From Magallana gigas (lineage: Eukaryota), in the NCBI RefSeq assembly GCF_963853765.1, contig NC_088860.1:25482001-25546000 (forward strand): 64,000 nucleotides of DNA. The letters are read 5' to 3'. The notes under the pieces are model-generated. The model did no database searches and was not told where the DNA came from. It saw only the letters and a program-made list of their open reading frames with translations. Position numbers and translations under genes: made by a program. Of the stretch, positions 45,270-46,535 are shown in pieces (within the stretch, counting starts at the first letter, position 1; every line of letters starts with the position of its first letter).

Positions 45270-45919
45270 ACCATTTTTGAATAAGTTTTCTCGTTATGTC
45301 ACAAATGAGATAATTTTATTACTATGCCCTGAAAATTGCTGAATCACACCGGAAACAGTTATATTGCCCACCCAGAAACAGTTATATTTCACAGGAAATA
45401 GTTATATTGCCCTCCCGAAACTGTAATATCACCATCGCGTGCAAGAATTCTGCATATTAATTACGTCGGGTTCGAAATTCAACGAGCCAGTTGCTAAGCA
45501 AACGTAAACAGATCCGCGAATTTTAAACATGTCAGGCCAACGTCTGCGGTTTGTTCATCTAAATTCAGATGAACTCGATAGTTTATAATTAATTGATGAA
45601 AAAAATTCGGCAAATACGACATAAGTGATAAACTCAAGCGTGAGTGTTTTAAAAACATTTGCCCCTGCCTTGTGAATTACATGTAAATAAATATGTTGAT
45701 AACCCGAGTTTGATTTGTTTAAAAATGTTATATAACATATATTACAAGTCTTCTCGAGCGACAATACCAGAATATTTGTCCCTCGGTGACAGGAAAGCCC
45801 TGAAGTGTTATGTCGCCCTCTGCCTTCGGCATCGGGCGACATAACACTCCAGAGCTTTCCTGTCACCTCGGGTCAAATATTCTGGTATGTCGCCCTCGAA
45901 GCCATGTAATATATGTATA
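45270..45919 (+). mobile_element. Non-autonomous DNA element T1 (650 bp) with a ~190-bp terminal palindrome
   Basis: Bounded by ATAT repeats (45266-45269, 45920-45923) as defined by the empty site at 46615-46618; internal gaaacagttatatt triplet; palindrome ~45729-45921 with apex TTC at 45825-45827. Confidence 0.9.
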
Positions 45920-45980
45920 ATATCGGCTGATATGGTAATGGCGTTGCTTGGGACCTAATCACAAAGCGACAGTAGATAAT

Positions 45981-46535
45981 ATACCATTTTTGAATAAGTG
46001 TTCTCGTTATGTCACAAATGAGATAATTTTATTACTATGCCCTGAAAATTGCTGAATCACACCGGAAACAGTTATATTGCCCTCCCGGAAACAGTTATAT
46101 TTCACAGGAAATAGTTATATTGCCCTCCCGAAACTGTAATATCACCATCGCGTGCAAGAATTCTGCATATTAATAACGTCGGGTTCGAAATTCAACGAGC
46201 CAGTTGCTAAGCAAACGTAAACAGATCCGCGAATTTTAAACATTTCAGGCCAACGTCAACGATTTGTTCATCTAAATTCAGATGAACTCGATAGTTTAAT
46301 TGATGAAAAAAATTCGGCAAATACGACAAAAGTGATAAACTCAAGCGTTGGTGTTTTAAAAACATTTGCCTCTGCCTTGTGAATTACATGTAATTAATAT
46401 GTTGATAACCCGAGTTTGATTTGTTTAATAATGTTATATAACATATATTACATGTCTTCTCGGGCGACAATACCAGAATATTTGCCCCGAGGTGACAGGA
46501 AAGCCCTTGAGTGTTATGTCGCCCGATGCCGAAGG
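45981..46535 (+). mobile_element. Second copy T2 of the same element, truncated at the palindrome apex
   Basis: Colinear with T1 with scattered substitutions and indels; ends ...gtcgcccgatgccgaagg. Confidence 0.9.

Follow-up and report, generated by a model that had tools for sequence, protein, structure and literature searches.

E1 and E2, which end in the palindromes T1 and T2, are two copies of one 0.65-kb non-autonomous element within the window (the whole 64,000-nucleotide stretch of Magallana gigas DNA that was analysed). Our preferred reading, which we hold with a probability of about 0.5, is that both are copies of a Crypton-type transposon with joined ends that the antisense strand, according to prediction, folds into an integron-like site, T2 being the likely scar of a failed insertion in which the hairpin was opened at its loop. 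The feature itself is real and belongs to a known transposon class; the mechanistic clue is new and testable. The features at the locus, in window positions, are the following.

45187..45265, + strand: first part of copy 1 of the host segment, the left flank of E1, with the same letters as the start of 46536-46675.
45266..45919, + strand: E1, full-length non-autonomous element, by its sequence Crypton-type, in flip form, leading AT counted in.
45721..45734, + strand: 5'-end complement inside E1, at the palindrome base; 14-nt exact match in copy L115.
45735..45919: T1, the 3'-terminal imperfect palindrome of E1 (left arm 45735-45824, loop 45825-45827, right arm 45828-45919).
45920..45980, + strand: second part of copy 1 of the host segment; 45979-45980 is the left AT of E2.
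45981..46535, + strand: E2, second copy of the element, lacking the right arm, 94.5% identical to E1.
46427..46535, + strand: T2, consisting of the 5'-end complement (46427-46440), a left-type outer arm, a switch at ~46470-46484, the reverse-complemented right arm and a GAA loop (46531-46533), with the break after 46535.
46536..46675, + strand: copy 2 of the 140-bp duplication; it continues uninterrupted across the unoccupied E1 site, and its end coincides with the unoccupied E2 site.

The apex of T1 reads GCCC-TC-TGCC-TTC-GGCA-TC-GGGC (45815-45837), presenting on the antisense strand a C-GAA-G loop above opposed GA/GA, and that of T2 reads GCCC-GA-TGCC-GAA-GG (46521-46535). The original prediction had described these as opposite orientations of the inner palindrome, with the outer arm of T2 matching the left arm of T1, and this was confirmed letter by letter: the outer part of T2 is the T1 left arm (with an extra A in GACAATACC) and its inner part is the reverse complement of the right arm. 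We refer to the T1 orientation as flip and to that of T2 as flop. Also as predicted, T2 breaks off 2 nt beyond the loop and is joined there to the duplication at 46536-46675, after which unique flank follows. Given that the palindrome arms extend over 61-66 nt at 89-95% identity, and that at least 40 near-identical copies are dispersed elsewhere, the T1/T2 feature is not a product of chance. The loop heptamer of 45815-45837 is, on the minus strand, the CCGAAGG mini-hairpin of the primase signal ssiA (PMC13037366, in part), and might conceivably serve in priming second-strand synthesis. A 43-bp tandem repeat lies in the 5' part of the element (45347-45429 and 46060-46142), in a region that in the full-length partner is upstream of the recombinase start, and a GC-rich tract at ~38000-38700 of the window reads like a host-gene coding exon rich in Pro, Gln and Ser.

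The possibility that T2 was a misassembly was ruled out by contigs of two public sequencing runs, X1 (46491-46565) and X17 (46495-46565), that cross its junction without a differing letter, with 45 and 41 letters respectively to the left and 30 to the right against a bridging rule of 31, X17 being possibly the assembly's own source. The left junction of E2 is present in contigs of X1, X3 and X17. The second copy of the duplication equals 45187-45267 plus 45922-45980, letter for letter over 140 bp, so that with E1 removed both copies are identical. The duplicated 140 bp is the target site of E2; E2 and the duplication came first, and E1 was inserted later into the first copy, because X1 and X17 carry the 140 bp unbroken and run X15 contains the empty allele, which is thus still segregating.

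The E1 family comprises at least 40 dispersed copies with the same ends and 89-97% identity (40 of 328 candidates scored). Through a search with the flop marker we reached a 2.05-2.1 kb partner that has the first ~400 and last ~250 bp of E1; its copies at loci L034, L035 and L115 are 99.5-99.7% identical and carry a single long sense open reading frame, the annotated product of which (P0001) has 446 amino acids. This protein scored 29.1 bits against Pfam Phage_integrase (PF00589; cut-off 27.1), and in an alignment with XerA the catalytic H-x-x-R, H and Y are matched (the first R and the K were identified by eye only); homologues carry DUF3504/QRICH1 domains (PF12012/PF25561). No reverse-transcriptase, DDE or HUH reading frame was found within the partner in its ORF lists or by Pfam search, the DDE frame of L034 lying outside the element. 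By these sequence criteria the element is a Crypton-type tyrosine-recombinase transposon, and the earlier statement that it matched no described family does not hold; a Helitron, Helentron or other HUH element was dropped as a candidate once the recombinase partner was found, and DIRS was rejected given the lack of a reverse transcriptase. The autonomous copy at L034 is nested within a piggyBac-like transposase gene (DDE_Tnp_1_7; minus strand, 5289-6614 and 8635-9126); the hairpin of this copy has undergone a collapse between two short direct repeats. That at L035 has its insertion point precisely at the end of a further Crypton-like hairpin (6477-6622, 8842-8987), itself inside a 334-bp duplication.

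All 37 full-length copies have AT as the 2 nt of the left boundary; on the right 34 have AT, and AT or GT comes next in 33. An invariant left AT with a right one that varies in 3/37 is as expected from a single crossover point. This AT core is the only terminal direct repeat in the 37 copies, as compared with 4-6 bp in fungal-type and none in animal-type Cryptons, and the target preference is AT-R-T. Full-length copies terminate at the base of the right arm and not at the palindrome axis. Head-to-tail dimers occur at L036 and L037 (the junction was printed for L036). Such dimers are compatible with any circle, and hence with a double-stranded circle inserted by two strand exchanges, which is the published, if undemonstrated, model (PMC3212892 and PMC13565253, both in part); in that case the palindrome and the 5'-end complement would be extra binding sites or a terminator, and breaks would arise by symmetric cruciform resolution. 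Neither a circle joint nor a hairpin joint appeared among the joints listed from raw reads of X23 and X24 (~5% of each run), where a circle joint would in any case be imitated by a genomic dimer.

A search with the recombinase protein gave 119 matches, from which the families with two or more copies were designated A-H, family A being that of E1 and B-H matching its protein at about 30-50%. All eight end 3' of the gene in a palindrome of ~130-190 bp, and the bases directly before the palindrome are complementary to the element's 5' end, the exact matches being 14, 13, 10, 8, 13, 10, 10 and 6 nt long in A to H; the complementing sequence itself differs by family. In 7/8 families this complement beat every other window of the same element (p<=0.0005). 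At some recombinase loci no long palindrome was present within the stretch examined. In the natural dimer at L036 the predicted fold has a stem running across the junction, and a complete site is predicted to arise when one strand across the joined ends folds. The abutment of the 5'-end complement on the palindrome in seven of eight families is left unexplained by a double-stranded circle. Two results here count against the preferred reading: family H failed the exact-match test (p=0.13), and the folding energies of the two strands lay a few kcal/mol apart with inconsistent sign, which is uninformative on strand choice.

The loops are also strand-specific, a further property that a double-stranded circle does not explain. 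On the antisense strand G-N-A or G-N-N-A loops were present in 12 of 14 hairpins (B was unscorable and N was without one; I and J were scored by eye), although the families are related and these counts are not independent, and about half of the hairpins carry opposed GA/GA just below the loop. Loops of the GNA type are exceptionally stable and nuclease-resistant, whereas TTC loops are not (PMC13037366, in part). An RNA UUCG tetraloop on the sense strand was ruled out by eye: the register of the stem leaves a loop of 3 nt, and in some families the letters are TCC.

The family A census drew on three marker patterns (72, 99 and 91 matches) that were assigned to loci by hand. A script returned 137 apex rows, which merging of duplicates reduced to 123; removal of four (two false matches, one doubled apex and one 33-bp fragment without orientation) left 119 scored, with three orientations corrected by hand. 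Breakpoint classes were assigned by eye, and the count excludes copies without the apex motif, for example L034, L059, L061 and L065. The flop form accounted for 13 of the 119 (11%), and a mid-arm marker gave 3 flop against 53 flip. Six flop copies keep the right arm and seven stop at the loop (T2, L032, L042, L057, L058, L077 and L176); among the 106 flip copies the left side is gone up to the loop in 18, the right side is gone from the loop in two (L062 and L173), and neither applies to 86. Flop isomers and loop-precise breaks thus recur across the genome, in line with the original proposal.

Truncation at the loop affected 7/13 flop copies as against 2/88 flip copies with an intact left arm (p=3e-6), and breaks on the left side were far from random, 18 of 23 falling inside 8 of 98 nt at the loop (p=6e-16; L038 and L067 left out). 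Right-arm sequence was retained in 25 of the 27 loop breaks (p=6e-6), and no copy consisting of a flop right arm alone was present among the 119 scored. The loop is a breakpoint hotspot with biased arm survival. Symmetric resolution predicts equal survival of the arms, which the ratio of 25:2 contradicts, and this, together with the design of the ends, makes a double-stranded circle unlikely; for the same reason ordinary inversion or symmetric cruciform cleavage, put forward originally as the simpler alternative, does not by itself predict the bias. We take the bias likely to mean that one particular DNA strand folds on itself, possibly during insertion. Three family A copies (L047 ~1584, L171 ~2161 and L177 ~2167) are broken at one and the same place in the right arm (E1 position 625-626), and in each the sequence continues with a hairpin terminus from a different Crypton family, which is probably a target site common to them.

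The existence of flop copies and the clustering of breaks at the loop would also be produced if each cycle passed through an intermediate with hairpin ends that is cut at the axis of the palindrome, in the manner of parvoviruses or protelomerases. Parvoviral rolling-hairpin ends have flip and flop in about equal numbers and depend on an HUH Rep and a fixed nick site, and in protelomerase ends the normal terminus is at the palindrome axis. The flip excess, with flop at 11%, already contradicts such a model. Switch points in the flop copies range from the arm base to just below the apex, the nearest match to the upstream sequence of each flop copy is a flip copy (uninformative for the 3/13 without upstream sequence), and no amplified flop lineage occurs among the 13; together the variable switch points and flip matches indicate that the flops are separate accidents. 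Parvovirus-like resolution was rejected because flop is a minority form with varying switch points and no amplified lineage, and protelomerase ends because full-length copies end at the right-arm base. Given also that the partner, which encodes a tyrosine recombinase, has no HUH frame, we regard an axis-cut cycle as very improbable. Of the original proposal of a hairpin-ended or single-stranded intermediate cut at the axis, the single-stranded part survives, in that the end design points to folded single-stranded DNA; the obligate axis-cut hairpin does not.

Two of the seven broken flops adjoin perfect duplications (140 bp at T2 and 334 bp at L035), both of which run through the empty target site, so that the template must have been without the element. 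At L035, an autonomous flop copy, the break follows GCCGAA and leads via a shared GAA into a 334-bp, 100% duplicate of the upstream flank; the match at the T2 junction is weaker. The other five broken flops and one broken flip showed no duplication in the upstream sequence examined (about 1.8-9 kb for the flops).

Under the preferred reading the antisense strand of the joined ends would fold, the right arm and 5' end pairing with the left arm and the 5'-end complement to give a bulged crossover flanked by two duplex arms. A single strand would then be exchanged between this structure and an AT-R-T target by the recombinase, leaving replication to complete the insertion. On failure, a strand consisting of the reverse-complemented right arm followed by GCC-GAA(-GGCA), with its 3' end at the loop, would rejoin through brief stretches of microhomology. 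A junction with element or flank sequence farther upstream would give copies that keep the right arm and lose the left, and ligation behind a partly copied left arm would give flop copies such as T2. A broken flop might then prime on the still-empty target strand, or on the sister, upstream of the site and so generate the 140- or 334-bp duplication. Complete flops and arm conversions would probably be template switches, and flop would be a by-product outside normal movement. Both main scar classes share a reverse-complemented right arm ending in or beside the GAA cap, as expected from processing of an antisense hairpin, and the duplications across the empty site are consistent with an intermediate of insertion in which the element is still absent from the partner strand or the sister.

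We propose more tentatively, at odds somewhat short of even, that in animal Cryptons generally the inserting form is the antisense strand, single and folded, with only one exchange of strands, as in integron cassettes, and that the flop and loop-broken copies with their duplications are abortive fossils that reveal the strand used, the first genomic footprint of the Crypton pathway.

Ordinary replication accidents after insertion are a strong rival to this account of the scars. The element would still be a folded-strand Crypton, but the palindrome would fold at replication forks, where the stable GAA cap would persist or a nick would enter the TTC loop; repair would proceed by template switching, microhomology and sometimes the empty homologue. 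The difference in nuclease sensitivity between TTC and GNA loops suits this rival, and loop chemistry alone could bias breaks in any single-stranded DNA, as at replication forks, with transposition not needed. Template switching between imperfect inverted repeats produces arm homogenisation and spacer inversion (PMC8604942, in part), and both occur in family A (L036, L040 and L054). The empty allele in X15 still segregates, the 140-bp segment is nearly invariant across four runs, making the homologous chromosome a possible template, and the absence of a duplication at 5/7 broken flops likewise speaks for accidents and against the preferred reading. Against the rival, neither duplication shows a single difference over its 334 or 140 bp and both end exactly at the empty site, requiring a near-identical empty template. 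Oyster heterozygosity is 1-3%. On balance we judge post-insertion accidents possible, if rather doubtful.

The arm bias was also scored in family C, for which the left-arm marker matched 3,419 times and the right-arm marker 3,809 times; within the sample, the first 27.4 Mb of C1, there were 94 exact left-arm and 100 exact right-arm matches, of which 36 and 42 respectively were without an exact partner, and all 78 of these were read, the 58 paired ones being unscored. Right-arm sequence was kept in eight loop breaks (2 flop-left and 6 flip-right), and the left arm in six copies that share one junction and >1.1 kb at 97-99% and therefore represent one event. Counted by event, family C repeats the bias at 8:1 (p=0.04), which supports the preferred reading; counted by copy the ratio is 8:6 (p=0.79). 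These six (L184, L191, L206, L207, L208 and L212) are a single loop-broken copy amplified inside a larger repeat. Both family B copies have rearranged apexes (L118, 3278-3496; L119, 61-193), and L119 keeps the left arm from the loop, opposite to the family A bias. The count by copies in family C, L119, and the left-keeping L062 and L173 of family A all weigh against the preferred reading.

The end design and the arm-biased scars specify an alternative that can be tested as to strand, fold and crossover, and intact recombinase copies exist at L034 and L035. Single-strand site-specific recombination has been described in bacteria (integrons, CTX phage), and our proposal, if true, would extend it to animal genomes; should the scars instead be accidents that followed insertion, the hairpins are still common fragile sites in the oyster genome, with ~3,400-3,800 marker matches in one family.

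Parvovirus/AAV and protelomerase ends share with the element the two orientations of the hairpin centre, although here flop is rare, unamplified and variable in its switch points, and there is no HUH Rep. Template switching at imperfect inverted repeats likewise homogenises arms and inverts spacers, but alone it gives neither loop-precise, arm-biased breaks nor duplications through an empty site (PMC8604942, in part). DIRS elements likewise combine a tyrosine recombinase with an internal region that complements the ends (PMC13465315, in part), whereas here there is no reverse transcriptase and both arms of the palindrome lie side by side at the 3' end instead of forming inverted repeats at both ends. 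Animal Cryptons of the CryptonA/DUF3504 group are alike in having a tyrosine recombinase only, in the absence of terminal inverted repeats and of long direct ones, in an excess of non-autonomous derivatives over full copies, and in relatives with DUF3504/QRICH1 domains (PMC3212892, in part). According to Kojima and Jurka animal Cryptons are without terminal repeats, and neither hairpin nor palindrome occurs as a word in the main text of that paper, as far as the portion available goes (PMC3212892), nor in the available portion of a 2026 CryptonA paper (PMC13465315); a 2026 review, again in the part available, holds the Crypton mechanism to be undemonstrated and assumes a double-stranded circle without a free break (PMC13565253). 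Our search, to which Repbase Reports, subscription journals and the supplements of PMC3212892 were external (the supplements may bear on the point), found no literature on terminal palindromes or single-strand intermediates in Cryptons. In contrast to animal Cryptons as published, every multi-copy family examined here has a 130-190-bp terminal palindrome, beside a 5'-end complement in 7/8.

The CTX phage is a comparable single-strand tyrosine-recombinase system. The integrons differ from the present case in that ours is eukaryotic and self-encoding, with a much longer stem, a GNA-type cap and no attI-like fixed site, only an AT-R-T preference, and here single-strand exchange is inferred. Integron cassettes and attC are alike in having a tyrosine recombinase and a 3' imperfect palindrome whose base complements the joined ends; one strand is exchanged and replication finishes the process, a second exchange leading to covalently closed abortive ends (PMC3458562, in part). 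In attC, according to the same source, one strand is favoured and the partner of the recombining strand is empty until replication, which matches our reading of E1 and E2.
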